NCBI GenBank assembly: GCA_965246895.1
Contig: OZ251993.1
Location: 466,654 to 530,653, forward strand
Direction of reading: 5' to 3'
Length of the DNA: 64,000 nucleotides
DNA from: Alphaproteobacteria bacterium
Lineage (GTDB): Bacteria > Pseudomonadota > Alphaproteobacteria > JAIXQD01
The translations under genes were made by a program, and so were the position numbers. The notes below the pieces were generated by a model, which made no database searches, had not been told where the DNA came from, and saw only the letters and a list, made by a program, of their open reading frames with translations. Positions 6,102 through 61,780 of the stretch are shown in pieces; positions within the stretch are counted from its first letter, which is position 1; each line of letters starts with the position of its first letter.

Positions 6102-7608
<1,507 letters not shown>

Positions 7609-8158: not shown

Positions 8159-10897
<2,739 letters not shown>

Positions 10898-10987
10898 TTT
10901 ATGATCAGGTGTTTACGCGCAGTAACAAGCCCATCTTTGGTTTGCTATTGCTGCTGACTATTCGTTGTATATTTGCGATTATCGATC

Positions 10988-11105
10988 GACCTGGTGATTT
11001 TAGCGGGGGATCTGCACCCGATCCCATCCCGAACTCGGCCGTGAAAGCCCCCAGCGCCAATGGTACTATGACTTAAGTCATGGGAGAGTAGGTCATTGCC
11101 AGGTC
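10988..11105 (+). rRNA. rrf: 5S rRNA
   Basis: GACCTGG...CCAGGTC terminal helix; CCCATCCCGAAC and GGGAGAGTAGG motifs. Confidence 0.96.
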
Positions 11106-11230: not shown

Positions 11231-11307
<77 letters not shown>

Positions 11308-11380
11308 AATTTGTCAAATATATCAAACATTTAAAAAGCAGCTAATCGCCCTATTGGGATGCTTTTAGTGGCTTTTTCTT

Positions 11381-11408
11381 TTTACGGACGCATACTGGAC
11401 GCACGAGG
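11381..11408 (+). repeat. Putative integrase arm-type site, left copy
   Basis: TTTACGGACGCATACTGGACGCACGAGG, identical to 61582-61609. Confidence 0.8.
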
Positions 11409-11529
11409 GAGAAAACCGCAGTTTGTTATGGCAAACTGTTAGTGGCTTTTCGCCGAACAATTCTCTACATGTATTTGTGAACTCACATTAGGTTGTATTC
11501 TAAATTCATATTTGTCTTGGAGTGTTTTG

Positions 11530-13899
11530 ATGCCAACGGCACCTGAGAGTATTTTTGTTGTAGATGATGAATCCGCTTCGATGTACGGCAGCGTTCTGAA
11601 GAACATCTTTCCGCAATCGCCGATTTTAGCTTTCAGAGACGTTGAGGAAGCCATTGAAGCTATGGCAAGCGGTAGCCGTCCAGACTTGCTCTTCCTAGAT
11701 GCGACAGAGCATGGCTGGCATCCCGAATGGGGTGCTGACAATGCTTACAGCATTCTCGACTGGCTCAAAGTCAACGCACCTGAACAGCCTTTGCCTCACA
11801 TTGTCTTTCAGTCAAATGACGAAGAATTATCGGCCAAATCAAAAAGCCTCTTAAAGCGTCAGCTTTATGGTGAAAATATAGAGATTACATTTGATGTCAT
11901 CGATACTGAAAAGAGCGAACTGCAGGTAATTCAGGATATTGTAGGTTTTGAAGAGGGTGGCACACACATCACTCGCATAGGGCGTAACTTTACCAAGCTG
12001 CGAGAATTTCTTAACAGCCGTTACGATTACAATCTGCCAACTACACAAGAGGATATAGACGAACTGGCTTTATCTAAAGGCTCAACAGATCCCCAGGCTA
12101 TTCTACGTTTGGTCGAAAAAGGTAAGATGTCTCGCGATGATGCGCTTAGTAAGATTGCACCCAAATTAGAATCTCAAATCGTTTACGAATACAGCTCGCA
12201 AGTTGAAGCTTATGGCGAGGATTACGATACCAATAGAGCGATGTCGCTCCATTTTCAGCGCGGTACAGAACAGCCGGTCACTGGGCCTGCGGCCTTTAGC
12301 CATGCTGATATTGTGGCATTGGCGGGTAAAGGCAGTAAGCCGATCTTGATTACTGAAGATGTAACCCCAGAAATTATACAGCTTTTTGGTAGCATCGCCG
12401 GTCTGGTAGTTTTATCTCAAAAAGCCAGCGGGCATGTGGAAATGCTGGCACAGGCACATCGTATTCCAGCCTTGCTTGGCAGAACCAATATTCATCGGGA
12501 TGCGGGCAAACCACGCGTAAAACTGCATGCATCCAGCGCTGCGCCTTACTTGACGTTGCAGACTTCAGTCAATCTTCTGAATGGCACTGTGAAGGCTGAT
12601 ACTCTTATCAGACGCGGCGTTGAGGAAATTAAATTAATCGCGCCACATAAGCAGGCAACACCAAAAGATGAAGACGGCTATGGTAATGAGCGGGTAACGC
12701 ACCGAATTAAAATGACTATCCGTGCCGGTGATCAAATCACAATCGATCCGCCCTATACTTTATATGCCGTCTATTTGCCTATTAATGAGCGTGAAAATCG
12801 CTCTAATTCCTGGCTGCCCGAAGCAAGGACGCTAGTCTGCGACTGGCATGAAGATAACAATTTTGTGCGCCTAAAATTCAAACAAAACATTGATGATATG
12901 GGCCAATTATATTCGGGTAATAGTAACGACGGGATCGGCCTCGTGCGAACCGAGCATTTGGTTATTTCATCCGGCCGGACGCTTCAGGCATTCCGCGATT
13001 TTGTATTGCGCGGGGATGAGAGAGCCCTGGAAGATTTTGAGAGCAGGCAGCAAAATGATTTCATCAACCTGATGGACGTTATTTGCCGTGCTGACGACTA
13101 CCCGCTTCGTATCCGGCTCATCGATGCGCCGCCCAGCGAATTCTTTGACGAGCAAGGGTTAAGCGATATAGAGACAAGATACGGTGATCGCTCTATTCGT
13201 GGCGTGCAATTGGCCGTCAAAGCTCCCGAACTTTACGATGCTCAGTTAAGAGCTATTTTTAGCAGCTATAAGGAACTTAAAGACAAAGGTCAGGATAGTG
13301 ATTTCTACGAGGCTCCTAAGTCACCAGTTGAAATCATGGTGCCAACTGTACGTACCGTAGATGAGCTGATGTTTGTGAAGGCGCGGGCAGAAGTAATGGC
13401 GGCTGACCATGGCCTGACCAGAGATGATTATAGATTTGGCTCTATGCTCGAAACAATCGATGCCTGCGATAACATAGCTGCCATAGCGCCGCTTTGCGAT
13501 TTCATCAGCATTGGCTCGAATGATCTGACTTCGGAAATCCTCAACTGTGGTCGGGATGACTGGGCGCGCCGCCGTAAGCTGACTGTTGAGAGTGGCAAGG
13601 GCGCAGATCCATTTATTACGATGCATGCGGATGTCGTCGCCAAGCTCGTAGAAACAATTGAGCAAGCCTATGCATCTAACCCTACGCTTCAAGTTGATTT
13701 GTGCGGGGCGCATGCGGCTGATTTGCCATCCTTAAATGCCTTGCGTCCCCTTGAGCTTAACGGTGTATCTGCTCCGCCTTCGCCGCAAAATCAGGACGGC
13801 TTATCACTGCTGTATATGATGGACACTTTTAAGCTTCATCCGGCAAAACCTATAGGGAAGCGAAAAAAGAAAAACCGAAGTCCAAAGCCTTCGGTTTAG
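11530..13899 (+). CDS. Receiver-like domain fused to PPDK-like phospho-His and PEP-binding TIM-barrel domains
   Basis: N-terminal IFVVDDE...PDLLFLD...IVFQS; central SGHVEMLAQAHRIPALLG; C-terminal GIGLVRTEH, EIMVP, GSMLE, FISIGSNDLT, LCGAH; no ATP-grasp domain. Confidence 0.8.
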   Translation: MPTAPESIFVVDDESASMYGSVLKNIFPQSPILAFRDVEEAIEAMASGSRPDLLFLDATEHGWHPEWGADNAYSILDWLKVNAPEQPLPHIVFQSNDEELSAKSKSLLKRQLYGENIEITFDVIDTEKSELQVIQDIVGFEEGGTHITRIGRNFTKLREFLNSRYDYNLPTTQEDIDELALSKGSTDPQAILRLVEKGKMSRDDALSKIAPKLESQIVYEYSSQVEAYGEDYDTNRAMSLHFQRGTEQPVTGPAAFSHADIVALAGKGSKPILITEDVTPEIIQLFGSIAGLVVLSQKASGHVEMLAQAHRIPALLGRTNIHRDAGKPRVKLHASSAAPYLTLQTSVNLLNGTVKADTLIRRGVEEIKLIAPHKQATPKDEDGYGNERVTHRIKMTIRAGDQITIDPPYTLYAVYLPINERENRSNSWLPEARTLVCDWHEDNNFVRLKFKQNIDDMGQLYSGNSNDGIGLVRTEHLVISSGRTLQAFRDFVLRGDERALEDFESRQQNDFINLMDVICRADDYPLRIRLIDAPPSEFFDEQGLSDIETRYGDRSIRGVQLAVKAPELYDAQLRAIFSSYKELKDKGQDSDFYEAPKSPVEIMVPTVRTVDELMFVKARAEVMAADHGLTRDDYRFGSMLETIDACDNIAAIAPLCDFISIGSNDLTSEILNCGRDDWARRRKLTVESGKGADPFITMHADVVAKLVETIEQAYASNPTLQVDLCGAHAADLPSLNALRPLELNGVSAPPSPQNQDGLSLLYMMDTFKLHPAKPIGKRKKKNRSPKPSV

Positions 13900-13913: not shown

Positions 13914-13990
13914 TGGTTGCGGGAACAGGATTTGAACCTGTGACCTTTAGGTTATGAGCCTAACGAGCTACCGGGCTGCTCCACCCCGCG
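13914..13990 (-). tRNA. Prophage-encoded initiator tRNA-fMet(CAT)
   Basis: Reverse complement CGCGGGGTGGAGCAGCCCGGTAGCTCGTTAGGCTCATAACCTAAAGGTCACAGGTTCAAATCCTGTTCCCGCAACCA folds as a full cloverleaf. Confidence 0.95.
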
Positions 13991-17225: not shown

Positions 17226-17585
17226 ATGGAACACTTAAGCCAAATAGAGAAAGACATGTTCCGCGAAGTCGCGGCTGTCATGTCGAAATACCAAGATCAA
17301 ACTCGTGAATTTGGCATGTGCCTGGTGCATGAGCATTTTGGCGTGGCTAACGACGAGATTATGCATGAGACCAACGATCCGATCAGCCGTATCCTGATCA
17401 CGAAGCCGGTCAAGATTGCTGAAATGCCTGCAGGTTCACACCCAACGCAATGGAAGATTATCCAAGGCGGAAAAGCCGAACCGACGCAGTGGTGCTGCAA
17501 CGATATCCAGGCCACGCAGTGGTGCTGTGATGATGACATTAAAGCTATTCAATGGTGCTGCGATGACATTAAAGCCGCAGCTTGA
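17226..17585 (+). CDS. Small protein with three C-terminal QWCC repeats
   Basis: AGGAGG RBS; FGMCLVHEHF motif; tail TQWCCNDIQA-TQWCCDDDIKA-IQWCCDDIKAAA. Confidence 0.85.
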   Translation: MEHLSQIEKDMFREVAAVMSKYQDQTREFGMCLVHEHFGVANDEIMHETNDPISRILITKPVKIAEMPAGSHPTQWKIIQGGKAEPTQWCCNDIQATQWCCDDDIKAIQWCCDDIKAAA

Positions 17586-17640
17586 TAGACTGGCGGTGCG
17601 GGCGGCAGGACTTGCCGCCCCATACCAGACGGAGATAGAT

Positions 17641-18630
17641 ATGAAACAACGCATATTATCGGGCGTACAGCCGACCGGCGACCTACATATCGGTAATTAC
17701 ATTGGTGCCTTGTCGGTTTGGACTGAAATGCAGGAGCAGTTCGATAGCCTATTCTGCGTGGTCGACCTGCATGCGATCACTATACCGGAAAGCATCAAAC
17801 CGCAGGAGCTAAAAAGCAAAATGCGGGATGTGGCGGCGCTCTATATTGCCTGCGGCATCGATCCCGATAAGGCAACCATCTTTATCCAGTCGCATGTGCA
17901 GGAACATGCTGAGTTAGCTTGGGTGCTGAATTGCACTACCCCGGTCGGCTGGCTGGAACGCATGACGCAGTTCAAGTCAAAATCCGAAAAGGCCAATAGC
18001 GTCGGGATGGGTCTGTTTGATTATCCAGTGCTTATGGCAGCGGATATCTTGCTCTATGATACGGATGTGGTACCAGTTGGGGATGACCAAAAGCAGCATA
18101 TCGAGCTAACGCGCGATATCGCCCAGCGGTTCAATAACCTCTATGGTGTTGAAGTGCTAAAGGTGCCGCAACCTTTTATCCGCGCAGAGGGTGCCCGCAT
18201 AATGGGGCTAAACGATCCAACGCAGAAGATGAGCAAGAGCGATACCAATCCGAATCACGCCATCAAGCTGCTGGATACGCCGGATGTTATCAAAGGCAAG
18301 TATGCGCGGGCGGTTACTGATAGCAAGTCAGCCTTCGATCCTGAAGATATGGCACCGGGTGTTGCTAACCTCGTCAGCATCATCAAGGTGATGGCAGGTA
18401 GTGCTGGGGAAACCATAGTTGCTGACCTGGTCGGGAAAGGTTACGGATCGCTGAAGAAAGCGGCAACCGATGCCACTGTCGAAAGACTGGAGCCAATCCA
18501 ATCCCGCTTTGCCGAGTTACAGCAACAGCCGGATGAACTGGAGGCGATCCTGCAGCGCGGGGCTGAACGAGCGAGAAGCATTGCACGGCCTAAAATGCAG
18601 CAGGTCAAAGCTGCAGTCGGCCTGGGATAA
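17641..18630 (+). CDS. trpS: Tryptophan--tRNA ligase (prophage-borne copy)
   Basis: SGVQPTG, HIGN, YPVLMAADIL, VPVGDDQKQH and KMSKS; GGAG RBS. Confidence 0.97.
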   Translation: MKQRILSGVQPTGDLHIGNYIGALSVWTEMQEQFDSLFCVVDLHAITIPESIKPQELKSKMRDVAALYIACGIDPDKATIFIQSHVQEHAELAWVLNCTTPVGWLERMTQFKSKSEKANSVGMGLFDYPVLMAADILLYDTDVVPVGDDQKQHIELTRDIAQRFNNLYGVEVLKVPQPFIRAEGARIMGLNDPTQKMSKSDTNPNHAIKLLDTPDVIKGKYARAVTDSKSAFDPEDMAPGVANLVSIIKVMAGSAGETIVADLVGKGYGSLKKAATDATVERLEPIQSRFAELQQQPDELEAILQRGAERARSIARPKMQQVKAAVGLG

Positions 18631-18721: not shown

Positions 18722-19288
18722 ATGAGCAAAGATATTCAGGAAAAGTTCAAAGCCAACATACAGGTTATGCGGCTCTGGCCGAGTGACGGAGCTGCCTATG
18801 GTGAGATCCGGAAAATGTCACTGGAGGAGTCACCCAACTCCTTTGCTTATTTAGCAGTAGATGAGGCGCATATGACTGCAGAAGATCATGGCCGCTATAT
18901 CGACAGCGCTGTAGTGCTCGGTGCTAAATACAAAGGCTTTGCCAGCGAACCGCTGATCGGCATTGTGTCGCTCTGTACCTTACCAGGTCGTCTTAAGCAT
19001 ATGTGTGAACTGACGCGCCTCTATGTGCATCCTGATTTCCGTGGCCAGGGTGTATCGAACGCTCTTATGGAGCGCTTTTACAGCGAAGCCAGAACGCATT
19101 GGATGGATGGCTGCAAGCTATCAGTCGCTGAAACTAACGCTGCCGCTTATAGATTTTACCAGCGACACGGGTTTGAGGTTTACGGTAGGCTCGAAGATGA
19201 ATTCAATTCGACTGAAGGCCGTGTTGCAGGCGTGCACATGATTAAGCGGCTGACGTCGCTTAAGTGTGGAAGCCCTGCAAATGTATGA
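18722..19288 (+). CDS. GNAT family N-acetyltransferase
   Basis: RLYVHPDFRGQGVS and NAAAYRFYQRHGF motifs. Confidence 0.92.
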   Translation: MSKDIQEKFKANIQVMRLWPSDGAAYGEIRKMSLEESPNSFAYLAVDEAHMTAEDHGRYIDSAVVLGAKYKGFASEPLIGIVSLCTLPGRLKHMCELTRLYVHPDFRGQGVSNALMERFYSEARTHWMDGCKLSVAETNAAAYRFYQRHGFEVYGRLEDEFNSTEGRVAGVHMIKRLTSLKCGSPANV

Positions 19289-20021
19289 AGTCATAAATCC
19301 TGAGTCTAAAGCATCTGTTGTTTTGCTAGTTGAGCATGCGGGGGCGACAATTCCGGCTGAGCTGGATAACCTCGGCTTACCTGCTGGCCAATTCAATGAA
19401 GATCCGCAGATGTTTTACGACCCAGGATCGCGTGATATGGCTATGCGGATCGGTCAGGCGCTTGGCCTGTCGATCTATTTTGGCCAACTATCCCGCCTAG
19501 TTGTTGATCTCAATCGCGAGGACGACCACACAGATTTAATTAAAGCCAAGTTTCATGGCCGAGACATTCCAGGTAATCAGAACTTGTCAGATAGCGAGCG
19601 CCGGACTCGATTGGAAAAGTATTATAAGCCATTCCATACGGCGCTTCGATCTGATCTAGCAAAACGCCAAGAGGCAGGTGTGTCTACCAAGCTAATCAGC
19701 ATTCATTCGTTTAACGCCGATGTAGCCTTTGCAACTTTTCCTGATCTCCAGCGTGAGCCAGTAGACATAGCGATTCTGTACGATGAAGAGTCTCAGCTAG
19801 TTAGAGATTTTCGGGCGACCATCAAACCAGGCAACTACGCTATTAAAGAAAATTATCCTTACGATCTCAGTGTTATGCAAACGGGTAGCATCTTGCAAAA
19901 CAAAAAGTTGTTTAAATTAGATGCTATAGGCATCGAGATTAATTCAGCACGACTAACCAATGCGGCTGACTTTACGGCTATCCAATCTACGCTACTTCAA
20001 GCTATCAAATTGGTAGTTTAA
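19281..20021 (+). CDS. N-formylglutamate amidohydrolase family protein
   Basis: EHAG, YDPG, SRLVVDLNR, IPGN, YYKPFH, SIHSF, NYPY and IEI motifs. Confidence 0.88.
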   Translation: MYEVINPESKASVVLLVEHAGATIPAELDNLGLPAGQFNEDPQMFYDPGSRDMAMRIGQALGLSIYFGQLSRLVVDLNREDDHTDLIKAKFHGRDIPGNQNLSDSERRTRLEKYYKPFHTALRSDLAKRQEAGVSTKLISIHSFNADVAFATFPDLQREPVDIAILYDEESQLVRDFRATIKPGNYAIKENYPYDLSVMQTGSILQNKKLFKLDAIGIEINSARLTNAADFTAIQSTLLQAIKLVV

Positions 20022-40792: not shown

Positions 40793-41227
40793 ATGACCAA
40801 TAAGTCTTATCTCGCGGCAATGCTCGCGTTATCACTAATCGTATCCGCTCCGGCCTTTGCCATGTGCCCTATGCCAGACGGTGACCAGCCTGCTGATCAC
40901 ATGATGGAACATTCGAGCCATGACATGGGGCATGGTAGCGATCACCAAATGCAACATCAGATGAGCGCCAAAAAAGATATCTATGCTTCGGCGATGGATA
41001 AGATGATGGCCAACATGCCGGAGGCGGTTGGCGATGCTGATGCCGATTACATGCGCGGTATGATTGTCCACCATCAGGCAGCAGTTGATATGTCAAACAC
41101 TGCTCTACAAAAGGCGCAAAACCCGCAGCTAAGGGCGCTGGCCGATACGATTATCACGGCTCAAAAAAGTGAGATCGCCTATATGAGGGAATGGCTCCGG
41201 ATGCATGATTTTTCGCAGCCGAAGTAA
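40793..41227 (+). CDS. DUF305/CopM-like periplasmic copper-binding protein
   Basis: Signal peptide; His/Met-rich stretch; MIVHHQAAVDMS..AQKSEIAYM. Confidence 0.88.
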   Translation: MTNKSYLAAMLALSLIVSAPAFAMCPMPDGDQPADHMMEHSSHDMGHGSDHQMQHQMSAKKDIYASAMDKMMANMPEAVGDADADYMRGMIVHHQAAVDMSNTALQKAQNPQLRALADTIITAQKSEIAYMREWLRMHDFSQPK

Positions 41228-41239
41228 ATTAGAGGAGAG

Positions 41240-41266
41240 GCCTCGCATCAATGCGGGGCTTTTCTT
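41240..41266 (+). terminator. Intrinsic terminator
   Basis: GCCTCGCAT-CA-ATGCGGGGC followed by TTTTCTTT. Confidence 0.65.
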
Positions 41267-41275
41267 TGCTTGTCG

Positions 41276-41294
41276 TATACCCCTTAGGGGTATA
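41276..41294. promoter_or_regulatory. CsoR/RcnR-type operator
   Basis: TATACCCC-TTA-GGGGTATA palindrome upstream of the operon ending in a CsoR-like gene. Confidence 0.8.
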
Positions 41295-41305
41295 TTAACT
41301 CGGCT

Positions 41306-41947
41306 ATGTTTAAGATTGCGTTCGTGAAAATTGCCCTTGCTGCACTGATTGCCCTGATGCCAATAGCCGCCGTAGCCAAGCCGGTTTCCTATGTAGGTGG
41401 TACTATGGTCATGCAGGAGAACGACGAGACGGGGCAGACGCTAAATCTCGACTATACCTTTGACCCGCACTTTTCTGCTGGCCTCTATGCCAAGCATGAA
41501 ATTGAAGGCAAGGAATATACAACTGTTGGCCCGCAGTTAAATTCCCTCATCAAGCGCTGGAACCTACCGGGCGCTCAAGGCAACATTTTTAATTCCAGTG
41601 GCCTTGGCGCTTCCCGCTATCAAGGGGATAATGAGTTCACGGCTTGGACAGGCTTTTTGGGGGATTACGAGACCCGCCGTATCTTCACTTCGTATGAAGC
41701 GCGAGTCATGCATGTCGATAATGTCGAGAACTACTTCTGGCAGAAAGCCCGCATTGGTGTCGCGCCGTACATTACGAATTATGATGGGCTACATACGTGG
41801 CTGATGCTGCAAGTGGACGACCATCCGGCCAAAAATGACACTTGGGTCGTCACGCCGCTGGTGCGTTTCTTTTATCACACCACACTGGTCGAGGCTGGGT
41901 ACAGCAGCAACGATCACCTCATGTTTAATTGGGTCTTACAGTTCTAA
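41306..41947 (+). CDS. Exported, probable outer-membrane beta-barrel protein
   Basis: Signal peptide; alternating beta pattern; terminal Phe (FNWVLQF). Confidence 0.7.
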   Translation: MFKIAFVKIALAALIALMPIAAVAKPVSYVGGTMVMQENDETGQTLNLDYTFDPHFSAGLYAKHEIEGKEYTTVGPQLNSLIKRWNLPGAQGNIFNSSGLGASRYQGDNEFTAWTGFLGDYETRRIFTSYEARVMHVDNVENYFWQKARIGVAPYITNYDGLHTWLMLQVDDHPAKNDTWVVTPLVRFFYHTTLVEAGYSSNDHLMFNWVLQF

Positions 41948-41960
41948 CCAAGGAGTATTT

Positions 41961-42248
41961 ATGCGTAAAACAATCTTAGCTACCAGCCTGTTCATTCTCG
42001 CGGCTTCAACGGCTCAGGCCGATACCATCCGGGCATCGGTTGATGGCCTTGTCTGCTCATTCTGTGCAACAGGTATCGAAAAGAGCTTCCAAGCTAATCC
42101 CGATGTCAGCAACATCAAGGTCGATCTTGACCAGAAGCTGGTTACAATCACCACAGAAGGCCATAATGACCTGTCAGATGCCTCGGTAACCAAGACTATT
42201 ACGGACGCTGGCTATAAGGTCACCAATATCTCGCGGGAAGCCTCGTGA
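41961..42248 (+). CDS. Periplasmic heavy-metal-associated (HMA, MerP/CopZ-like) protein
   Basis: Signal peptide; GLVCSFCA; ITDAGYKV. Confidence 0.9.
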   Translation: MRKTILATSLFILAASTAQADTIRASVDGLVCSFCATGIEKSFQANPDVSNIKVDLDQKLVTITTEGHNDLSDASVTKTITDAGYKVTNISREAS

Positions 42249-42622
42249 GCGTTAAAGCTGCCACCCTTCACACCCTAACCCTGTTCGGCTCGGCCAGCAC
42301 GCTTATCTGCTGTGCCTTGCCTGCCTTGTTTGTATCGCTTGGGGCTGGGGCAGCCTTAATAGGGCTGACAACGGCTATCCCGCAGCTTGTGTGGCTGTCT
42401 GAACATAAGATTGGGCTATTCGCCTTTGCAGCGGTGATGCTTACGACTTCGGGCATAATGCAATGGCGCAATCGCTATGCAGCTTGCCCGATTGACCCGG
42501 AAGCAGCGCGGGCTTGCCTAAGGTTGCGTAAGATCAGCGTTTCAATCTTCTTCTTCTCGGTAACGCTTTTCATCGTTGGCTTCTTTTTTGCCTTTGTCGC
42601 TGCCAACCTTATGAGGATGTAA
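42245..42622 (+). CDS. MerT-like metal transporter
   Basis: STLICCALP, three TM helices, ACPID..AC loop. Confidence 0.8.
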   Translation: MSVKAATLHTLTLFGSASTLICCALPALFVSLGAGAALIGLTTAIPQLVWLSEHKIGLFAFAAVMLTTSGIMQWRNRYAACPIDPEAARACLRLRKISVSIFFFSVTLFIVGFFFAFVAANLMRM

Positions 42623-42924
42623 TGACCAAGGAGAAATCTAAAGATTGCTGTCCTGTCTATCCTTCGCACGAAAGCCAAGTGGGGCGCTTAAACCGTGCCA
42701 TCGGCCAGTTGGAAGGCTCCAAGAAGATGATTGACGAGCGCAGATACTGCCCGGAGATTATCGCCGTATTGCGCGGGGCTAGAGCCGCCATTAAAGCGGT
42801 AGAAGCAAATATACTCGAAACCTACCTTGGCTCCTGCGTCACTGAAACATTTAGTTCGGGCAGTAAGGAAGACAGGGCGCAAAAACTTGCTGAACTAAAA
42901 GACCTGTTTAAAAAACTAGGCTGA
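42622..42924 (+). CDS. csoR: CsoR/RcnR family metal-sensing repressor
   Basis: RLNRAIGQLEG..RYCPEI..ETYLGSCV; the usual His ligand reads Tyr. Confidence 0.85.
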   Translation: MTKEKSKDCCPVYPSHESQVGRLNRAIGQLEGSKKMIDERRYCPEIIAVLRGARAAIKAVEANILETYLGSCVTETFSSGSKEDRAQKLAELKDLFKKLG

Positions 42925-53198: not shown

Positions 53199-55745
53199 AT
53201 GCGGCCTTGTGACCTGCCATCAATATTAGAACTTCCATTTCAACAACGCCGAAAGGCGATTGCGGAGCTATTTCTCAATAGCAATCTAAATTTCGATCAA
53301 GCGATTGAACAAATTGATCTTCTTAGATCCTTAGTAGCTGCAGAAAAACCAAGCGAGTTAGAAAATTTTGAAGACCAAGTTTTGCTGGTTCTTTCATTTA
53401 TGGAGAAAGGATCTGCAAACCAGCGAATTGATTTAAGCACCCCAGAACATGAACTGCTATGGGGGATTAGTCTGGCTGCTGCATTTACCGATGAAAAAAT
53501 TTCTGCTGTCTGGCCTGAAGAAGCAAAAAACCAACCGTTTAGATTGCTGCCAATTGGTAGTCAGTTGTTAGGTACAGATCTATATTCACGTGAGCTGGGT
53601 ATTGCGCAGCTTGAAGCGGCTAGTCTCATCAAAGCTAGAGTTCAGATTAACTGGGCCATACCTCATGAAGGTTATCCAGGACTTGCCTACGCTTACAATT
53701 CTCATCTAGACCGTATTCATCTCGACCCTGTCTGGCACTTAATCATAGGTAGTGAAAACGCTATTGGCGCTGTTGCTCACGAAATTGCCCATGGCATTGG
53801 CACAAGGTCATTCACACCTAAGTTGCAAAAGCTGCATGATCAGCTTGAAGTGATGCAGAAAAAACCACGTAAGGATTGGGGTGAAGACGATTATATTGCA
53901 TTTACCCGAGTCAATGCTGAGTGGTACGTCCGGTTTTTGATATTTGACGAAGCTGAAAATAATTATGCAAATCGCTTTGCGGCAAATCGCACAAGCATGA
54001 TGGCTACAAACTATTCAACAGCTTTAAATTACATCGAGTCGTTGCTTGTAAGCTCGGAGCATGAGCCACCACCAGTTTACGAAATTGATGAAGCTGACAA
54101 ACCTAAGGAAGAAGTTAAAGCAGAAGTTCCTCCGGAATATGCTAAGTACCTTCGCAATATTAAGCGCGTCATCCGCTACAACTTCTTTAAGAATAACGGT
54201 CTAATCGAAGATACGGAAGTCGGTTGGAAATCTGTCAACGTCGATATCGATTTCCTGTATTCCGGTCGTTCAGAGAAGACTGAAGTTTTTGGTAGTGGTG
54301 AAGCTATTCTAGAGAACGTACTTCACACCTGTCACGAATTAGAAAAGACGCAGCCTCAACAACGCGAGAGACTTTTCCTCAGCCCTGAAGCTATGCAGCA
54401 ACGGGCAGATGAATGCTCTGAGGCAAGAAACATTATTATTGATGAATTATTTGACCGTCATCTAAGTCATATTCTTTCTGAACTTGATCGTGATGCTGAG
54501 AATGAAGCAAAAGAATTGCTCGAGCGGGCTGCAGCCGAAGGCATAAACATCGCAGAAACCCAGCCGTCTATTTTTATTCCTGGACTTGGGCGCATCTCTG
54601 TATGTGATCTCCCTCCTGAAAAGCCTGAAGATCTTCGTGTACCTAGTGATGGTATGGGCGAAGAATGCGAGGGCGAGGGGTATGATGGCAAAGCAGAGTC
54701 AAATATTGATCCTGAAATCTGGAAAGAAGATAAGCCGAGCTTTGGTGGCGGTGGCCGAGGGCCAGGTGGCGGTTACTCTGATGCAACGCCAAAACTGCGT
54801 GAATCAACAGGTGATGGTTCTTGGTACAATGCCGTTGTGGCGAAGTATAGCGGGGCGGCTACTGAGGTTGCACGTATGCTACGAGCTATCGAAGAGCGAG
54901 TAATCATTCTTCAAGATGATGAGGTTGATCGCTATAGCCTCTATCCGGAAGACGGCAATCCTAGCCGCATCGATACAGGTACGATCTATAATCGAATGAT
55001 CAAACTCCAGACAGGCCAACCTATAGATGAAAATACGATTTCTCATTTTAAGATTGATCTTCCCGTGAGCCCGGCTTGTCCTCCATCTGATATTGTCATA
55101 GCGGTCGACGGTTCAGGCAGCATGCGCGGGGAGCCGGTTGAAACTGCTATGTCAGCCGGATGTATAGTTCACGCCGGAGCACAGATGCGTGATCGCCGTG
55201 TAAATCTTATTATGATGGGTGAGCCAAAACCTTTGGAAGTTGCTAAGCCAGGTGACTCACCTAGCGAAATTGCGCGACGCATCGAAGCCCTTAAAAAGGG
55301 CGACGGCGGTTCGCGTGACTTTTTATCGCCAGTGGTTAAGTTGGCGCTCGAATTTACGATTAACCAGCGCCGCATAACGAATGAATTGCAAGGCAAAACA
55401 AGTCTGTTTTGTATAAGTGATGGTGGATTTAGTGATGGCCAGCGTGCCTTGCAATCCATGACAGAAATTGCAAAATTATGCCCTGGCTTTAGTTTGGATT
55501 TCATTTTTATCGTAAAAAACTACGAGCCTACTGGTGTGATTAAGCATATTCACGCTTTAAACAGGTCGCCAAGTAAAACGAAAATTGGGTATGTGACTGC
55601 AAAAAAACTATCAGACATACCAGGAGCATTAGTAAAGCTTCTCGATAGTCGCTTGAAAGCTAGTGGGGAAAGTGAAGCGCAGCCTTACTCCCTCAAACGC
55701 AGTCAGTTTATGAGAGCTCATAGTAGAATGAATTGGAGTTTTTGA
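53199..55745 (+). CDS. HExxH metallopeptidase-like domain, acidic/Gly linker and vWA domain
   Basis: AHEIAHG plus downstream DEAENNYAN; MIDAS VDGSGSM and ISDG. Confidence 0.85.
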   Translation: MRPCDLPSILELPFQQRRKAIAELFLNSNLNFDQAIEQIDLLRSLVAAEKPSELENFEDQVLLVLSFMEKGSANQRIDLSTPEHELLWGISLAAAFTDEKISAVWPEEAKNQPFRLLPIGSQLLGTDLYSRELGIAQLEAASLIKARVQINWAIPHEGYPGLAYAYNSHLDRIHLDPVWHLIIGSENAIGAVAHEIAHGIGTRSFTPKLQKLHDQLEVMQKKPRKDWGEDDYIAFTRVNAEWYVRFLIFDEAENNYANRFAANRTSMMATNYSTALNYIESLLVSSEHEPPPVYEIDEADKPKEEVKAEVPPEYAKYLRNIKRVIRYNFFKNNGLIEDTEVGWKSVNVDIDFLYSGRSEKTEVFGSGEAILENVLHTCHELEKTQPQQRERLFLSPEAMQQRADECSEARNIIIDELFDRHLSHILSELDRDAENEAKELLERAAAEGINIAETQPSIFIPGLGRISVCDLPPEKPEDLRVPSDGMGEECEGEGYDGKAESNIDPEIWKEDKPSFGGGGRGPGGGYSDATPKLRESTGDGSWYNAVVAKYSGAATEVARMLRAIEERVIILQDDEVDRYSLYPEDGNPSRIDTGTIYNRMIKLQTGQPIDENTISHFKIDLPVSPACPPSDIVIAVDGSGSMRGEPVETAMSAGCIVHAGAQMRDRRVNLIMMGEPKPLEVAKPGDSPSEIARRIEALKKGDGGSRDFLSPVVKLALEFTINQRRITNELQGKTSLFCISDGGFSDGQRALQSMTEIAKLCPGFSLDFIFIVKNYEPTGVIKHIHALNRSPSKTKIGYVTAKKLSDIPGALVKLLDSRLKASGESEAQPYSLKRSQFMRAHSRMNWSF

Positions 55746-58423
55746 TGATAAATAAGACCATTAAGTTCGGCGGCCCTGCAACGCCAATTCCTACTTATGA
55801 TCCTAAGACAGGTCATGTTGGCGCTCTATGTAGCTATAGAAGTGAGATCAATTTTGTCACTTTTCGAGACGATATTAGTCGCAGCGGCTCTATGCAAATC
55901 CAAGGCGATGATGACCGTATTACGGCTAATGAAGCGCTGTATGCCGATCTCATTCGCAATTTGCCTTCCCGGCAAATGCTGCCGCACCTTATCCATGAAC
56001 TGACTGAGCGCGATCCGACTCGTACAGATTGGAATAAAAGAAGCATGGTCTGCCGATACGAAGGGCCGCCTTCCATTGGTAAAAGTTTTCTTATCAAAGC
56101 CCTCGGCAAGCTAACTCACCCTAAGGGTGTTTTGTATCTAAATTGTAAAGACGTCGATATGGGCGTTCTTTTCTGTGAAACTGTGTTCGACACAAGCGCA
56201 GCCAATACAGAGAAAGCAGCTATTGATGCCCGCGTATTGCAAGGTAATGCTGGCAGTGAAGGTGGCCTAAAGCCTGAAAGTCGTATCCTACTCAAACAGA
56301 TTTTGGGCTCTGCATATATTGAAGACGAGCTAGGCGACTCGGTGTTGACCTCGATTGACTGGAACGGAATTCAGGTCAAAGGCAATAGTATTGAAGAGCA
56401 AGCCTATCAAGAGCAGGTTGTGCGTGAGGCTATCAAACAGGTTTGCGAGTTAGAAGGCATTCGAACAAACTCAGGTTTGAGCCAAATCGGCATTACGACA
56501 CGGGACGGCATGGCTGTTCGTGCAGCTGATCCGACTTCAGCAGACTATTGCAGGCCAATTCTTTTAGACGAGTTAATGCGGTGCAAGCATGGCACTGACC
56601 AGAAGCTATTTGAGTGGGTTGCCATGCTGTCAGATCCACTAGTGGACTATGTTGAAGTGATAGCCGGTAAGAACCGGCATGTGCGTCTTTATCGCCGTGA
56701 TCTACCAGCGACCTACCGTGTCAACATTACGGATAATCCTAATGTGCGCGGTATGGGCAGTGCAAGCATGAGCAAGCCACTTAAATCGCGCTTGGGATTT
56801 GAACTTGATGACAGGATTGTGCCAGATCCTGGCTTGCCAGATTATGCAGATCGTATCGCCCAATTCCTAACTGGCTTCGGTGCGTTACAAGTTTATTATG
56901 CAGGGAAGGAGTTTTTTGATGCCCATCCCAGCAGCTTGCGTCAGTTAGCTACAAATTATTTGCGAGCTGGAAAAACAGACGCTGCAATCAGCCGCATTTC
57001 CAATGAAGATCTTACCAATATTGAAAATATCGAGTCTGTCATTGAGCTTAGTGAACAGCTGGGCCGCTTCTTTGCCGACCTAAAACCCATGTTCAATCCA
57101 AATTCCACATTTCATCAGCAGCAGGGGACATCGGTAAGTCACGCTTACGAAGATTATCTTAGCAGCGTCGAGATTGATTTGCGGCTCGTTACAAAGTTAT
57201 TAGAAAAAGCGCTAACTGATGCACCAATACCTTCAAGTCCAGCCAAAGCGAATTTTTCTTCGGCTTTTCAGTTCGGCATTGATTCCGGTAAGTCTGCTAA
57301 GGCAGAGCCAGCACCAAATCGCGGCTTAAGACTTGAAAATTATATTGTTGGATGGCTTGAGCGTGTATTTGTACCAGCGGATGCTGATTTGCGTGGCATC
57401 AATAAAGACGAGTGCAAGAAGCTTCTAGATATTGCCTTAAAAGCGGCAGCCAACTGCGGCATTGGTGATCCAGAGCTACGTGAAGCCGACAAAGGCGATG
57501 TAAAAAGAATTTGCGATCTTTACGATTTCAACCCTTACGCGGGACCGATGGGAACACTGCTTGTTGTTAGAGACATCGTCGTTGGCAAGGTGCGTGAACA
57601 GTACGCCGAATTGCAGGAGGCGAATGACCAGCTTCCCAATTTGCCGGAAGATAACGAGAAAATACTCTCTACTTTGGAGCTAGAGCAGGCATTAGACCAT
57701 GTTGCCCGTTTGGAGAATATTTCACGGGCAAACCAGCCTTCGTCCATCGTACTTCCAAACTTTAATCCCGACGACTTTATGGCTTCGCCCTTTAGCGCAT
57801 GTATTGTCAACGATACAGCGCAAGCTGGCGCAGGTATGACTGATACGCCGATAGATAAGGATGCTTTATTAATCGGCCTGGCTCACCCTAAACTGCGAGA
57901 TCAGTCTGTAGCAGCTTTATTTAGCAAAACACTCGTGAGCCGTGCAGACCTAGCGCAGTCAGATCCTGCAATCCAAGTTAGTGCTAAACAGTCGGATACT
58001 GGTTTCGGTCTAACCAGCTGCAAAGTTCTGAACGGGGATACTGAAGAAACGCTTCATCTATTTTCTGCGAAAGATGGAGCGCTGTTAGTCGTTGGTGGCC
58101 AGATTAATGAAATGACCGCTAATTTGCTAAGAGCTTGCCGCGTTACTTATGCTGAGCGTGGGAGCGCCAATGCCGAGAGAGTTATTGATGGTTGGGCTGA
58201 GGGAGCCTTCAAACAACAGGACGTTCTTTCAAGCCGTGCGGAAACCGATGCTCTATTGAAGCGTGCTTTCATCTTGCGTAACGGCAATGCCGGTGACGAA
58301 GAGGCGCTGCTTGCTTTACCCCTTCCTGAACTTGTTTTTAATGAAAAATCCGTGCCTATCCGCCCCGTAGTGGTAATTCACCAGAATGCCAACCGGGCAT
58401 TAGCAGCAATGAGTAGAGGTTGA
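55745..58423 (+). CDS. Large MoxR/dynein-like AAA+ ATPase
   Basis: Walker A GPPSIGKS, Walker B ILLDE, TDNP sensor, MSKPLKSR Arg finger; TGATG coupling. Confidence 0.82.
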   Translation: MINKTIKFGGPATPIPTYDPKTGHVGALCSYRSEINFVTFRDDISRSGSMQIQGDDDRITANEALYADLIRNLPSRQMLPHLIHELTERDPTRTDWNKRSMVCRYEGPPSIGKSFLIKALGKLTHPKGVLYLNCKDVDMGVLFCETVFDTSAANTEKAAIDARVLQGNAGSEGGLKPESRILLKQILGSAYIEDELGDSVLTSIDWNGIQVKGNSIEEQAYQEQVVREAIKQVCELEGIRTNSGLSQIGITTRDGMAVRAADPTSADYCRPILLDELMRCKHGTDQKLFEWVAMLSDPLVDYVEVIAGKNRHVRLYRRDLPATYRVNITDNPNVRGMGSASMSKPLKSRLGFELDDRIVPDPGLPDYADRIAQFLTGFGALQVYYAGKEFFDAHPSSLRQLATNYLRAGKTDAAISRISNEDLTNIENIESVIELSEQLGRFFADLKPMFNPNSTFHQQQGTSVSHAYEDYLSSVEIDLRLVTKLLEKALTDAPIPSSPAKANFSSAFQFGIDSGKSAKAEPAPNRGLRLENYIVGWLERVFVPADADLRGINKDECKKLLDIALKAAANCGIGDPELREADKGDVKRICDLYDFNPYAGPMGTLLVVRDIVVGKVREQYAELQEANDQLPNLPEDNEKILSTLELEQALDHVARLENISRANQPSSIVLPNFNPDDFMASPFSACIVNDTAQAGAGMTDTPIDKDALLIGLAHPKLRDQSVAALFSKTLVSRADLAQSDPAIQVSAKQSDTGFGLTSCKVLNGDTEETLHLFSAKDGALLVVGGQINEMTANLLRACRVTYAERGSANAERVIDGWAEGAFKQQDVLSSRAETDALLKRAFILRNGNAGDEEALLALPLPELVFNEKSVPIRPVVVIHQNANRALAAMSRG

Positions 58424-58424
58424 T

Positions 58425-58700
58425 ATGCAAGATGTAATCTCATCCTTACTTGATTTGGCCATAAATCAAAGCGCCGATGCTTTAGAAGGTTCAGATGGGC
58501 GCGTAAGATTTGTGGCTGGATGGCGAGCCGCATTGTTACGGAGTAAATGCCAGGTTGCGACAACACTCGGAGGGTTTGAGCAAGCCTTAGAAGAGGGCGC
58601 TAAAGAAATATTTGTGCCTGTCCGTGCTTTCGGAATAACGGCTATTCGAAGAATTATGGATCGCGTTCAAAGTGACGCAATTATTTACGTGGAGCAATAA
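58425..58700 (+). CDS. Small hypothetical protein
   Basis: GAGG RBS; fits exactly between its neighbours. Confidence 0.75.
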   Translation: MQDVISSLLDLAINQSADALEGSDGRVRFVAGWRAALLRSKCQVATTLGGFEQALEEGAKEIFVPVRAFGITAIRRIMDRVQSDAIIYVEQ

Positions 58701-60182
58701 ATGTCTTTGAGTCCAGCCAAAAAAAGCATTTTGAACATAAACGCTAATGGGCAAATGGATGCCATCATTACTTGTGCGAAGCGCAAAAAGCCCTTGAGAG
58801 GTATTACGGCTCAGCTGAATGGTATTGGCCAGCCTCTTTCACTAGGTGATTTTGCAACAGCAAATGGCCCTTTAGGCCAGCTGATGTTTAAGCGTGGTCA
58901 AAAGCAGGATTCTGCTATCGATATCATCGATCAGATCCTTACTGAGCTTGCGGAAATAGACGAACTGCCATCTTTTCACGATTGGGTGAGCACCAGAAAT
59001 TCTGAGTATTCCTTGATGGAGTGGGCGACGAAACGTAAGGTGCTGGCTAAAATATTTCAACCACAGTTCTGGGCCGGACGTACTGATCAGATGAATTTAC
59101 TCTGGAATCAAATACCAGAACGCGGGCAGCAGCAAGTTAAAGACTTTTTTCGGCATGTTGCAGAAGCCGAAGGGTTGGGAGATAAGTCTGGCCAACAGAA
59201 AGTAAATGTATCACCTTCAGGACTCTTCGTGCCGAATAATGAAGGTGCAATTCCAGCTGATGATATTCGTGTTTGGCGAAATCTTCAGGACGTAATCGAC
59301 GATGCACCTGTAATTGTGGAAAGCCCAATCATAACCCATGACCATATGGTTCGCCGGGGCAGAGTTCGGGCTAGTTATATAGAATTGGCTTATGCAGCAG
59401 GCGCCTTGCCTGTAGTTCAAAAGTATCTACGTGAGCACGACAGGCCTTTGACTAGAGGCAGCATCGCGCAGGCCGGAATGGGGCATGTTCTAAAAGAAAT
59501 AGATACGGCCTTTATAAATTACTGTCGTCTAGGCAACACTGGAGCTGTTAGTAATTTAATCGAAGCAAAAATTGTTGATTTTGGAGCCATAACTGATCGA
59601 GAAACGCAGCCTGCACCTATTGCTGCTGCTACAGCGGGCCATGCTGAAGTCTTAGATCTATGCTATAGTAATGGTGCTGATCCTGATCTTACATGTGCTG
59701 GTAAGGGGACGCTTACTGCGCTTTGGCAAGCCGCGAGACACAACCGCCCTGCCGCCGTTAGCTCTATTGTACGTGCCCTTAAGGAGAAGCATGCCAATGA
59801 TCCGGTAGCTTATTTGGATTCGCTCCATGCTACTCATGACTCATTAACGCCTCTTGGGGCTGCGAAGAAGCATTCAAATGCAGATACCACGGCAGCGCTG
59901 TCAGATACCTTAATAAAGGCTGCCGAGGCCGTGGCTACATTACCAATAGAGAAGCTTCTGGAAGGACATGAGCAATCTCAAGGCGCTCTTTTTGCTTTGA
60001 AGCGACTTAAAATGCTTCCAGATTTGTTTAGGCCCGGTCTTTGGGTTGGTAATGTACAGGCTATGCAAAATATTGCTGAGATTGTTACTCCGGCTGAAGT
60101 CGACTCACAATTGATTGCAGCTGGTAGGCCATCATTTGGAACTTTAATGACAATCGTTAACGCTCAAACGTTGAAGCGGTGA
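58701..60182 (+). CDS. Ankyrin-repeat-like protein
   Basis: AAATAGHAEVL..GADPD, TALWQAARHN and TPLGAA motifs. Confidence 0.75.
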   Translation: MSLSPAKKSILNINANGQMDAIITCAKRKKPLRGITAQLNGIGQPLSLGDFATANGPLGQLMFKRGQKQDSAIDIIDQILTELAEIDELPSFHDWVSTRNSEYSLMEWATKRKVLAKIFQPQFWAGRTDQMNLLWNQIPERGQQQVKDFFRHVAEAEGLGDKSGQQKVNVSPSGLFVPNNEGAIPADDIRVWRNLQDVIDDAPVIVESPIITHDHMVRRGRVRASYIELAYAAGALPVVQKYLREHDRPLTRGSIAQAGMGHVLKEIDTAFINYCRLGNTGAVSNLIEAKIVDFGAITDRETQPAPIAAATAGHAEVLDLCYSNGADPDLTCAGKGTLTALWQAARHNRPAAVSSIVRALKEKHANDPVAYLDSLHATHDSLTPLGAAKKHSNADTTAALSDTLIKAAEAVATLPIEKLLEGHEQSQGALFALKRLKMLPDLFRPGLWVGNVQAMQNIAEIVTPAEVDSQLIAAGRPSFGTLMTIVNAQTLKR

Positions 60183-61562
60183 ATTTACAAAATCCTCTAA
60201 AGCAGCTTTTGCATATCTGATTCTGCTTCCAACTTTTGTATAGGTAGGCCCAACACCTCTCCAGCGCCAATTATCCAGCAGTCGTCGAGTAACCCCTAGA
60301 TGTTTAGCTGCCTGTTCTGGCGTAACATGAAAGAGGCGAGTATTGTTCTGATCTGTAAGCTCGGAGATTATTTCGACGTATTCGGTTTTGTCACTGTTGC
60401 TCGCGATTTGAAGAAATTGCCCCATCTCGTCATTCACTTTGGTAGCAGCTTCGACTGCAGGGTGAATTGCAAGGTGAGCATATCGGGCCGTGGTCTGGGT
60501 TTGCGAATGGCCTAGGATTTTACCAATAATAGGTAGGCTCAGCCCCATATTTACTGCGCTAGATGCAAAGGTGTGTCTAAGGTCATGCAAACGAACATCA
60601 TTTAATTTTGCCCAACTACGAACATGACGCCACGCTTTCTGCATGTTGACGTAGGCCGATCCAATCGTGAGGTTTGAACATATTACATGTGGGTTGCCTT
60701 CAGTGCGGGGTAGATCCTGCAATATTGAAACAGCTGTTCTACCGAGAGGGATGACTTTAGCGCCTGTTTTAGAGTCAGGCAGACGTATAAGAGCCTTATC
60801 AAGTTCAACCCATTCCCATTTGCAGTATTGGATTTCCCCTAAACGTGCGCCGGTTAATACCAGAAGCCGTATGCAAGCGATTGCATAGATTGAGAGAAGC
60901 TGCTTGTCTTCTGCATTATTTAAAGCCTCGCCTAAACGGCGTAGCTCGTCCGGGGTAAGGTACCGCTCACGCTTGTTTTCTTTAAATTTTTTGAGATGCC
61001 TACATGGATTTGTGCCATCGGGTCGCCAGCCCCAGAGTTCAGCCAGATTGAACATTTTCGAGCATACCTCAATAATTCTGTTCGCATTGATTTTGCGGGC
61101 AGAGTTAGCCTGCTGAATGTTGGCTATATCGCTTTTCGTGACCTCCGCCACTTTCAAATGACTCATGGCGGGCAGAATAAACGCATTTAAGATGCGCTTA
61201 TAATTAACCATCGTCTTAGGTTTTACATGATGGGCACAATGTTCATCCAAGTATCGGTCACTAAGCTCCTTTACAGTCGGGGCGGCTCGGTGGGCTAGTT
61301 TGTCACCTGCAGGGTCTTCACCATTGCGAGCGGCAGCTAACAATGTGGCAGCCTTGAGCCGTGCATCTTCCGCTGTAAAATGGGTGTAGTGGCCAATCGT
61401 ATATCGGCGGGTTTTGGCTCCGTGCCGATATTGAATGAAATAGATTTTACGACCCGTGGGAAACACTCTAACCCCAAAGCCAGGGATCTCTGAATCCACA
61501 ATCTGGTACTCTTTCTCTTTGGGCTGTAAAGCTTCAACCGTTCGTTTTGTAAGTTTAGGCAC
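60144..61562 (-). CDS. int: Tyrosine integrase with N-terminal arm-binding domain and extra C-terminal excisionase-like HTH
   Basis: GFGVRV arm domain; TGARLGE, HDLRH, LGH and TTARY catalytic motifs. Confidence 0.95.
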   Translation of the reverse strand: MPKLTKRTVEALQPKEKEYQIVDSEIPGFGVRVFPTGRKIYFIQYRHGAKTRRYTIGHYTHFTAEDARLKAATLLAAARNGEDPAGDKLAHRAAPTVKELSDRYLDEHCAHHVKPKTMVNYKRILNAFILPAMSHLKVAEVTKSDIANIQQANSARKINANRIIEVCSKMFNLAELWGWRPDGTNPCRHLKKFKENKRERYLTPDELRRLGEALNNAEDKQLLSIYAIACIRLLVLTGARLGEIQYCKWEWVELDKALIRLPDSKTGAKVIPLGRTAVSILQDLPRTEGNPHVICSNLTIGSAYVNMQKAWRHVRSWAKLNDVRLHDLRHTFASSAVNMGLSLPIIGKILGHSQTQTTARYAHLAIHPAVEAATKVNDEMGQFLQIASNSDKTEYVEIISELTDQNNTRLFHVTPEQAAKHLGVTRRLLDNWRWRGVGPTYTKVGSRIRYAKAALEDFVNSPLQRLSVNDCH

Positions 61563-61581
61563 TGCTTCCTTCCAATTCCTG

Positions 61582-61609
61582 TTTACGGACGCATACTGGA
61601 CGCACGAGG
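61582..61609 (+). repeat. Putative integrase arm-type site, right copy
   Basis: 28-bp identity with 11381-11408. Confidence 0.8.
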
Positions 61610-61734
61610 AAGCAAACCAGTGGCAAAACAGGCTAATTAGACGATTGCTTCACGGTGCAGTGAAGTCAACTAAACTATTGAAATATAAAAGAGAATGGGG
61701 TCGTGTATTGCTGTTGAGGGTTCCACTAGACCTA

Positions 61735-61780
61735 GCTCATAACCTGAAGGCCGCAGGTTCAAATCCTGCCCCCGCAACCA
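61735..61780 (+). repeat. attR core (displaced 3' half of tRNA-fMet)
   Basis: GCTCATAACCTGAAGGCCGCAGGTTCAAATCCTGCCCCCGCAACCA with no tRNA 5' half upstream. Confidence 0.92.

Follow-up and report, generated by a model that had tools for sequence, protein, structure and literature searches.

A 64,000-nucleotide stretch of DNA from an alphaproteobacterium (GenBank assembly GCA_965246895.1, contig OZ251993.1, positions 466,654 to 530,653 of the forward strand; the whole stretch is referred to as the window) contains a gene for a 789-amino-acid protein, P0001, which belongs to a so far undescribed protein family that derives from pyruvate phosphate dikinase (PPDK). In this family, a receiver-type domain with a short helical connector stands in for the ATP-grasp domain of PPDK, while the phospho-histidine swivel domain and the TIM barrel that binds phosphoenolpyruvate (PEP) and pyruvate are retained. 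We infer that a phosphoryl group may pass from PEP to His302 and then to Asp57 inside one protein; this relay, each phosphotransfer step of which is read from the anatomy of the protein, is given nearly even chances. Its parts were largely anticipated in the initial annotation of the gene, which was made without database searches and described a PPDK linker helix, an SGH swivel domain, a barrel with the catalytic Cys of LCGAH, no nucleotide-binding domain, and, in its place, a receiver (REC)-like domain with VVDDE, LFLD, and a beta4 Ser.

The open reading frame (ORF) spans 11512-13899 on the forward strand, with ATG 11530 as the chosen start (Table 1). The translation carries VVDDE at residues 10-14, LFLD at 54-57, IVFQS at 91-95, SGH at 300-302, and LCGAH at 724-728, and the codons of these motifs were verified. 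The whole-chain AlphaFold2 (AF2) model, built on a 68-sequence alignment, had a mean predicted local distance difference test (pLDDT) score of 90.0 and a predicted template modeling (pTM) score of 0.87; confidence was lower in a variable insertion of the swivel domain (approximately residues 325-398).

The C-terminal two thirds of P0001 are those of a PPDK. Pfam PEP-utilizers_C matched residues 453-750 (E 2e-29; 103.1 bits, cut-off 22.8), and the Pfam swivel domain was found on residues 271-322 at 20.7 bits, under its cut-off of 23.1. When a profile of 20 family members was aligned with one of 18 canonical PPDKs by hhalign (probability 100%, E 4.9e-60), residues 181-739 corresponded to PPDK columns 355-863. 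The match begins at the conserved linker helix (DPQAILRLVEKGKMSRDDAL in P0001) and spans the His loop and the entire barrel, with His302 aligned to the histidine of the PPDK T-S-H motif. Upstream of residue 181 there was no alignment to PPDK, and the ATP-grasp domain PPDK_N gave no Pfam match in P0001. The best NCBIfam model was PPDK TIGR01828 (E 3.2e-40), followed by PEP synthase (4.9e-13) and Enzyme I (5.1e-10); the score against the PPDK equivalog, 137.9 bits, lies below the cut-off of 843.45. Among solved structures, the closest relatives by sequence were PPDKs (5jvn, E 1.4e-23), and the top Foldseek match of the full AF2 model in the PDB was PPDK 5jvl_C (E 2.2e-30 over 616 columns), with Enzyme I and PEP synthase next. 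Across 68 aligned family members, which are 22-35% identical to P0001, H302, R473, R529, E641, and D665 are invariant (68/68 each), and C725 and N664 are kept in 67 and 65 members, respectively. The linker helix, swivel histidine, and barrel of the initial annotation are thus present, as is the proposed loss of the nucleotide-binding domain.

The N-terminal domain was recognized as a receiver by profile and structure comparisons. With a 19-sequence profile of residues 2-140, 32 PDB sequences were listed at E ≤10, of which 23 contained receiver domains; in the best of these, RcpA (1k68, E 0.0012), the acidic pair and D57 of P0001 fell on the DD pair and the phospho-acceptor of the receiver. An hhalign comparison with 24 REC domains of the same genome gave a probability of 97.0% (E 9.6e-11) over 82 columns from beta1 to beta4, in which the DD pair, D57, and S95 of P0001 were aligned with the REC DD pair, Asp, and beta4 Thr. 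Modeled alone from a 66-row alignment, the domain adopted a (beta-alpha)5 fold with a pLDDT of 91.5 (beta1 8-11, alpha1, beta2 32-35, alpha2, beta3 53-57, alpha3, beta4 90-95, alpha4, beta5 123-127, alpha5 128-138). The top ten Foldseek rows for this model were all receiver domains or a receiver-containing fusion, led by GacS D1 (E 8.3e-6). By VIA-align, the best match was the ETR1 receiver 1dcf (Z 10.7, root mean square deviation [rmsd] 2.8 over 112 residues), followed by NtrX (Z 10.6), and a search of 48,161 representative PDB chains that was independent of Foldseek again placed receivers first (ETR1 1dcf, Z 10.7; GacS D1 with BeF3, Z 10.1). P0001 has the receiver fold and, of four signature positions, the acidic pair, the Asp, and the Thr/Ser, and it fails the Pfam model. 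Pseudo-receivers usually lack the acidic-pocket residues; in the family, D12 is kept in 58 of 68 members, D13 in 44, D57 in 64, and S95 in 64, with Thr in 2 more. The profile searches and structure predictions that the initial annotation had proposed for both parts of the protein thus recovered the PPDK half and the receiver fold, and Pfam Response_reg gave no match.

The initial annotation treated the gene as a one-off, which the census of relatives contradicts. An exhaustive HMMER search returned 1815 representatives at E ≤0.001, and at the stricter limit of E ≤1e-30, 85 cluster representatives remained. Approximately 12 of the representatives can be aligned almost end to end with P0001 at 31-38% identity. 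A word-index search with P0001 retrieved only PPDKs (~32% identical across 45% of P0001) and yielded a cluster of one member, and the same search with family alignment A1 retrieved canonical PPDKs only and no family members. Because the word-index searches missed the family, the census is taken from the exhaustive HMMER search alone. Family proteins are about 700-800 amino acids (aa) long, and the 20 representatives that were looked up are named "hypothetical protein" or "PEP-utilizing enzyme" and come from metagenome-assembled Alphaproteobacteria or Proteobacteria, or are nameless. A Pfam scan of 45 relatives found PEP-utilizers_C in all 45, PPDK_N in none, and the swivel domain at E ≤0.01 in 16. 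In a quick IQ-TREE search on the swivel and barrel, 67 family rows were separated from the 18 PPDKs and P0259 with a Shimodaira-Hasegawa-like approximate likelihood ratio test (SH-aLRT) support of 100; the tree is unrooted, and the groups were fixed after an initial FastTree run had put P0259 among the PPDKs.

On this anatomy, the proposed reaction would begin with PEP bound in the C-terminal TIM barrel, which would phosphorylate His302 of the swivel domain as pyruvate leaves, with Cys725 protonating the enolate in a PPDK-like manner. The swivel domain would then rotate to the site that the nucleotide domain occupies in PPDK, and the phosphoryl group would pass from His302 to Asp57 in the putative Mg2+-binding acidic pocket (D12, D13, and S95) of the receiver-like domain. 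In the profile alignment, the receiver lies N-terminal to the retained linker helix and occupies the place of the second docking site of the PPDK swivel. The level of phospho-Asp could thereby track the PEP:pyruvate ratio without ATP, and the onward step might be a conformational output via the receiver, transfer to a histidine phosphotransfer (Hpt) or receiver protein, or hydrolysis. The relay is reasonable as a mechanism because this anatomy is conserved across the whole family.

Several observations weigh against the relay. Pfam Response_reg did not match P0001 at E ≤1, and the hhalign alignment with the receivers of the same genome stops at beta4, leaving a divergent alpha4-beta5-alpha5 region unaligned. 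At the position of the receiver Lys, P0001 has K128 following beta5, which the hhalign alignment does not cover; in this column, 12 of 68 relatives have K and 6 have R, and the conserved residue there is instead the acidic E130 (E in 51 and D in 7 of 68). The AF2 model superposes more closely on PPDK structures whose swivel lies by the PEP barrel (1vbh, rmsd 5.0; 5jvl, 5.1-5.3) than on 1dik/1kbl (11.4-11.5), and, because of this, no model places His302 at Asp57. Receiver-to-swivel pairs were also not in excess in a crude and underpowered covariation scan of the 68 sequences (mutual information with average product correction), in which the top 100 pairs between the receiver and other regions comprised 67 with the PEP barrel, 18 with the swivel, 11 with the helices, and 4 with the linker, against column shares of 306, 123, 76, and 18, respectively, of 523. 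Finally, no Pfam family was common to two loci among 37 neighboring ORFs of six loci, and no output domain was evident. Of the one-protein relay of the initial annotation, then, the anatomy proved right in every part and throughout the family, and the docking of the swivel on the receiver was seen in no model, and only 18 of 68 members have K or R at the position of the receiver Lys.

The crude covariation scan of the 68 sequences also yielded an observation on the connector: the conserved E130 (11917-11919) covaries with the conserved R158 (12001-12003) of the L-R-x-F-L-N motif (z 4.8). As judged from these sequences, the two residues may be joined by a salt bridge that would hold the receiver against the helical connector.

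P0001 differs from each of the systems that it resembles. It shares with PPDK (5jvl, 1vbg/1vbh, 1dik/1kbl; TIGR01828) the linker helix, the swivel phospho-His, the TIM barrel, and the same Arg, Arg, Glu, Asn-Asp, and Cys residues, but the ATP-grasp domain is missing, a receiver-like domain with ~40 family-specific helical residues stands instead, and the swivel has an insertion of ~70 residues. A search for the ATP-grasp domain showed it to be absent, so P0001 is not a PPDK; having no nucleotide domain, it cannot make ATP from AMP and PPi. A role as a PPDK substitute was also rejected, given that relatives co-occur with a PPDK frame of ~900 aa (in genomes G401 and G402) or with partial frames (G404).

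Enzyme I of the phosphotransferase system (PTS) works independently of ATP: PEP autophosphorylates a swivel His beside a homologous barrel, and EI-Ntr (PtsP) adds an N-terminal GAF sensor. P0001 has the swivel His, the homologous barrel, and an additional N-terminal domain in common with these proteins (Foldseek, Enzyme I 2hwg, E 3.8e-16). It is unlike them in that its barrel is nearer to PPDK, its N-terminal domain is a receiver and not a GAF domain, and Pfam found no HPr-binding helical subdomain; its NCBIfam PTS_I_fam score of 38.4 is below the cut-off of 341.7. Since neither the HPr-binding subdomain (by Pfam) nor HPr in the genome was found, P0001 is not an Enzyme I. The source genome (1.69 Mb, 95.5% complete) has the P0001 gene as its only PEP-utilizers_C match, and PPDK_N, PTS-HPr, and PTS_EIIA_2 were not found in it. 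Response_reg has 27 matches in this genome and Hpt has 2, and a pyruvate kinase is present. P0001 was accordingly rejected as a substitute Enzyme I of PTS-Ntr, HPr and EIIA not being found in that genome, and as the sole route from PEP to pyruvate, pyruvate kinase being present.

By analogy with the GAF domain of EI-Ntr, the receiver might instead be a regulatory input (from a separate histidine kinase, a ligand, or a metal) that gates an Enzyme-I-like, PEP-dependent phospho-His donor whose acceptor, a protein or small molecule, is encoded elsewhere. We regard this alternative, the main rival of the relay, as rather unlikely. A sensor followed by swivel and barrel is the known layout of EI-Ntr, and the poor conservation of the receiver Lys (K/R in 18 of 68), the divergent alpha4-beta5-alpha5 region, and the AF2 placement of the swivel by the PEP barrel all suit an input domain. 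The 27 Response_reg and 2 Hpt matches also imply that kinases are at hand in the source genome, and two relatives, P0128 and P0133, have a further receiver, as if integrating kinase signals. However, no acceptor-binding domain is evident in P0001 (there is no Pfam match to the N-terminal HPr-binding domain of Enzyme I), neither HPr nor EIIA was detected in the genome (95.5% complete), and no neighbor is common to the six loci of relatives. In addition, the receiver stands exactly where PPDK has the partner domain for its swivel His, which favors the relay from His302 to Asp57 over a purely regulatory receiver.

Hybrid histidine kinases, such as those carrying the ETR1, GacS, SLN1, and RpfC receivers, resemble P0001 in having a phospho-His module and a receiver Asp in one chain, and receivers of such kinases are among the best structural matches of its N-terminal domain (1dcf, Z 10.7; 7qz2, Z 10.1-10.2; 8phn, Z 9.6). 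They differ in that the proposed donor of P0001 is PEP via a PPDK-type swivel His, not ATP via a DHp/CA core, and in that the receiver Lys is not conserved in the P0001 family. The known phosphodonors of receivers are histidine kinases, Hpt proteins, and small molecules (acetyl phosphate, for example), and PEP-driven phospho-His chemistry is that of PPDK, PEP synthase, and the PTS. If the two are joined in one chain as proposed, they would represent a new entry point into two-component signaling and, if the relay is true, a PTS-independent means of sensing the PEP:pyruvate ratio. In its widest form, the idea would make the family an ATP-independent, PEP-powered counterpart of hybrid histidine kinases, passing phosphate from PEP to the swivel His, to its own Asp, and on to Hpt proteins or orphan receivers, and so wiring the PEP:pyruvate ratio into two-component signaling in bacteria without a PTS; we consider this extension unlikely. 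The additional receivers of P0128 and P0133, one of them supported by Pfam, link the family to two-component signaling and count in favor of the relay from His302 to Asp57. Response_reg matched 1 of the 45 scanned relatives, P0128 (E 3.6e-10), where it represents an additional receiver ahead of the family's own. P0133 has a further N-terminal segment that can be aligned to the extra receiver of P0128, and both proteins have the architecture REC + REC-like + swivel + PEP-barrel in about 1000 aa.

The excerpts available from Galperin et al. (2018; PMC5847659) note REC + PPDK fusions in Bacteroides and Heimdallarchaeota, which, as given there, are like P0001 in joining a receiver to part of a dikinase. 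In full-text literature searches, fusions of a receiver with the swivel and barrel half of PPDK did not come up in any paper. Taken together, the P0001 family appears to represent a new domain-architecture variant within the PEP-utilizing enzymes that is rare and unannotated, with a mechanism that is plausible and unproven.

The family is small, very divergent, and so far confined to uncultured Alphaproteobacteria and other Proteobacteria. A search with one genome per species recovered five loci (L001-L005) that match almost end to end, in metagenome-assembled genomes of Proteobacteria, Alphaproteobacteria, and Pseudobdellovibrionaceae. Two of these genomes, G401 and G402, have two family-sized frames each beside the PPDK frame of ~900 aa, and in G404 a relative occurs together with partial canonical-type PPDK frames. 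Among the 40 nearest relatives of the source genome, only the source genome itself has a match from profile position 1, with the other 29 matches beginning no earlier than position 374. When the class was sampled evenly, 2 of 401 genomes had matches at E ≤1e-70, namely, the source genome and G041, the latter covering positions 181-765 only. A metagenome scan kept 80 loci, all of PPDK type and matching in the C-terminal part only, and an ESM Atlas search with the homologue P0126 gave no usable match.

A further alternative is that the protein has net PEP phosphatase activity, in which the phosphoryl group moves from PEP through His and Asp to water, and that it serves either as a metabolic valve or as PEP-draining phage cargo, a toxin, or an anti-phage effector, the last roles having also been raised in the initial annotation. 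The acyl phosphates of receivers hydrolyze spontaneously, which is in keeping with this alternative, as are the position of the gene as AT-rich cargo directly inside the attL end of a prophage-like element and the location of one relative (L005) next to a phage capsid gene. Against it, P0001 had no match in PHROG or, at E ≤0.01, in PADLOC-DB 2.0, a test that does not extend to defense roles beyond that database; P0121 and P0133 likewise had no PADLOC match, and P0128 matched solely via its extra receiver. The 14 pattern matches in viral contigs included no gene for a relative, none of 16 records in the phage collection and none of 205 plasmid records covers at least 80% of the protein, and the best TM-score in a BFVD structure search was only 0.20. 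Five of the six loci of relatives lie among housekeeping genes, G401 and G402 each carry two paralogues beside a normal PPDK, and no antitoxin-like or immunity partner is present. The pyruvate kinase of the source genome means that a PEP-to-pyruvate route exists already. Overall, the family as a whole is not phage-linked, and we judge the phosphatase or toxin reading quite improbable, its toxin and defense variants finding no backing in these data. That P0001 is a decayed PPDK remnant or a pseudo-enzyme without phosphotransfer activity, as its missing ATP-grasp domain, its 137.9 bits against the NCBIfam PPDK cut-off of 843.45, and its sub-cut-off Pfam swivel score could suggest, is highly improbable in view of the intact frame with a ribosome-binding site, the modeling of the entire chain at a pLDDT of 90, and the retention of all catalytic residues in 67-68 of 68 diverse relatives (22-35% identical to P0001).

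Within the source genome, the gene arrived with a prophage-like element that is integrated in a tRNA-Met gene, as AT-rich cargo next to attL (Table 1). The element is 50.4 kb long and lies between attL and attR cores of 46 nt, with the integrase beside attR; between its ends are lambda-like head and tail genes, a terminase, an S24 repressor-like gene, and cargo. The P0001 gene is the first gene inside attL and has a GC content of 47.6%, compared with 54.9% (standard deviation [SD] 3.0) in 2.37-kb windows of the genome (2.3rd percentile), and a third-codon-position GC content of 0.461, compared with 0.621 (SD 0.074; 3.2nd percentile). The view of the initial annotation that this is a lone, AT-richer cargo gene at the prophage end holds, with tRNA genes on either side of the gene and no recurring neighbor among its relatives. 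Upstream lies a complete rRNA operon (16S, 6102-7602; tRNA-Ile; tRNA-Ala; 23S, 8159-10900; 5S, 10990-11104; tRNA-Met[CAT]). A 43-nt direct repeat occurs on both arms of the element (11375-11417 and 61576-61618; 91%), and these repeats may hold the integrase arm sites.

Table 1. Features of the P0001 gene, its protein domains, and the ends of the element, in window coordinates
Feature	Position	Strand	Remarks
tRNA-Met (CAT), end of rRNA operon	11231-11307	+	3' 46 nt (11262-11307) are the attL core
Shine-Dalgarno-like GGAG	11519-11522	+	7 nt upstream of ATG 11530
Gene for 789-aa P0001	11530-13899	+	stop TAG 13897-13899
Receiver-like (beta-alpha)5 domain, residues 1-140	11530-11949	+	D12/D13 acidic pair; putative phospho-acceptor D57 (codon 11698-11700); S95 at end of beta4; K128 after beta5
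Helical connector, residues 141-234	11950-12231	+	family-specific motif L-R-x-F-L-N ... L-P-x-T-x-E-E; retained PPDK linker helix from residue 181 (nt 12070)
Phospho-histidine swivel domain, residues 235-425	12232-12804	+	His302 codon 12433-12435
Second linker helix, residues 426-445	12805-12864	+	from profile alignment and AF2
PEP/pyruvate-binding TIM barrel, residues 446-760	12865-13809	+	R473, R529, E641, N664/D665; proton-donor Cys725 (codon 13702-13704)
Lys-rich C-terminal tail, residues 761-789	13810-13896	+	low AF2 confidence
Second complete tRNA-Met (CAT), inverted, inside element	13914-13990	-	91% complementary to the first; directly after the gene
Tyrosine integrase of the element	60144-61562	-	
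attR, partial tRNA-Met 3' half	61735-61780	+	93% identical to 11262-11307

A hairpin and T-run at 13872-13897, belonging to the inverted tRNA-Met, resemble a terminator and overlap the last codons of the P0001 gene, so that the end of the protein tail is encoded by the complement of this structure behind the convergent tRNA gene. The Lys-rich tail was rejected as a nuclear-localization or secretion signal, since it is the complement of the T-run and hairpin, is not conserved, and has a pLDDT of 50-56.

Other cargo of the element was found in three places. Between attL and the phage genes, three ORFs (17416-18630, 18722-19288, and 19266-20021) encode a class-I Trp/Tyr-type tRNA synthetase, a GNAT acetyltransferase, and an N-formylglutamate amidohydrolase-like protein; the synthetase appears to be an extra copy, because it is the third tRNA-synt_1b match in the genome. 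A metal-related cassette (40793-42924) with DUF305, an HMA domain protein, and a CsoR-like metal-sensitive repressor lies within the tail block, between the tape-measure and distal tail genes. Adjoining the integrase (53199-60182) are two very large ORFs, one of 848 aa with a VWA domain and one of 896 aa, and an ankyrin-repeat ORF of 493 aa, none of which had a PHROG match.

Contigs from two DNA runs of one study cover the stretch without differences, and no RNA run containing it was listed. In metagenome run X1, which contains the stretch, low-depth contigs (2-3, compared with ~23) are ~87-89% identical to two parts of the gene (11913-12211 and 12463-13098), which suggests a diverged copy of the gene from a related strain or species in the same sample.

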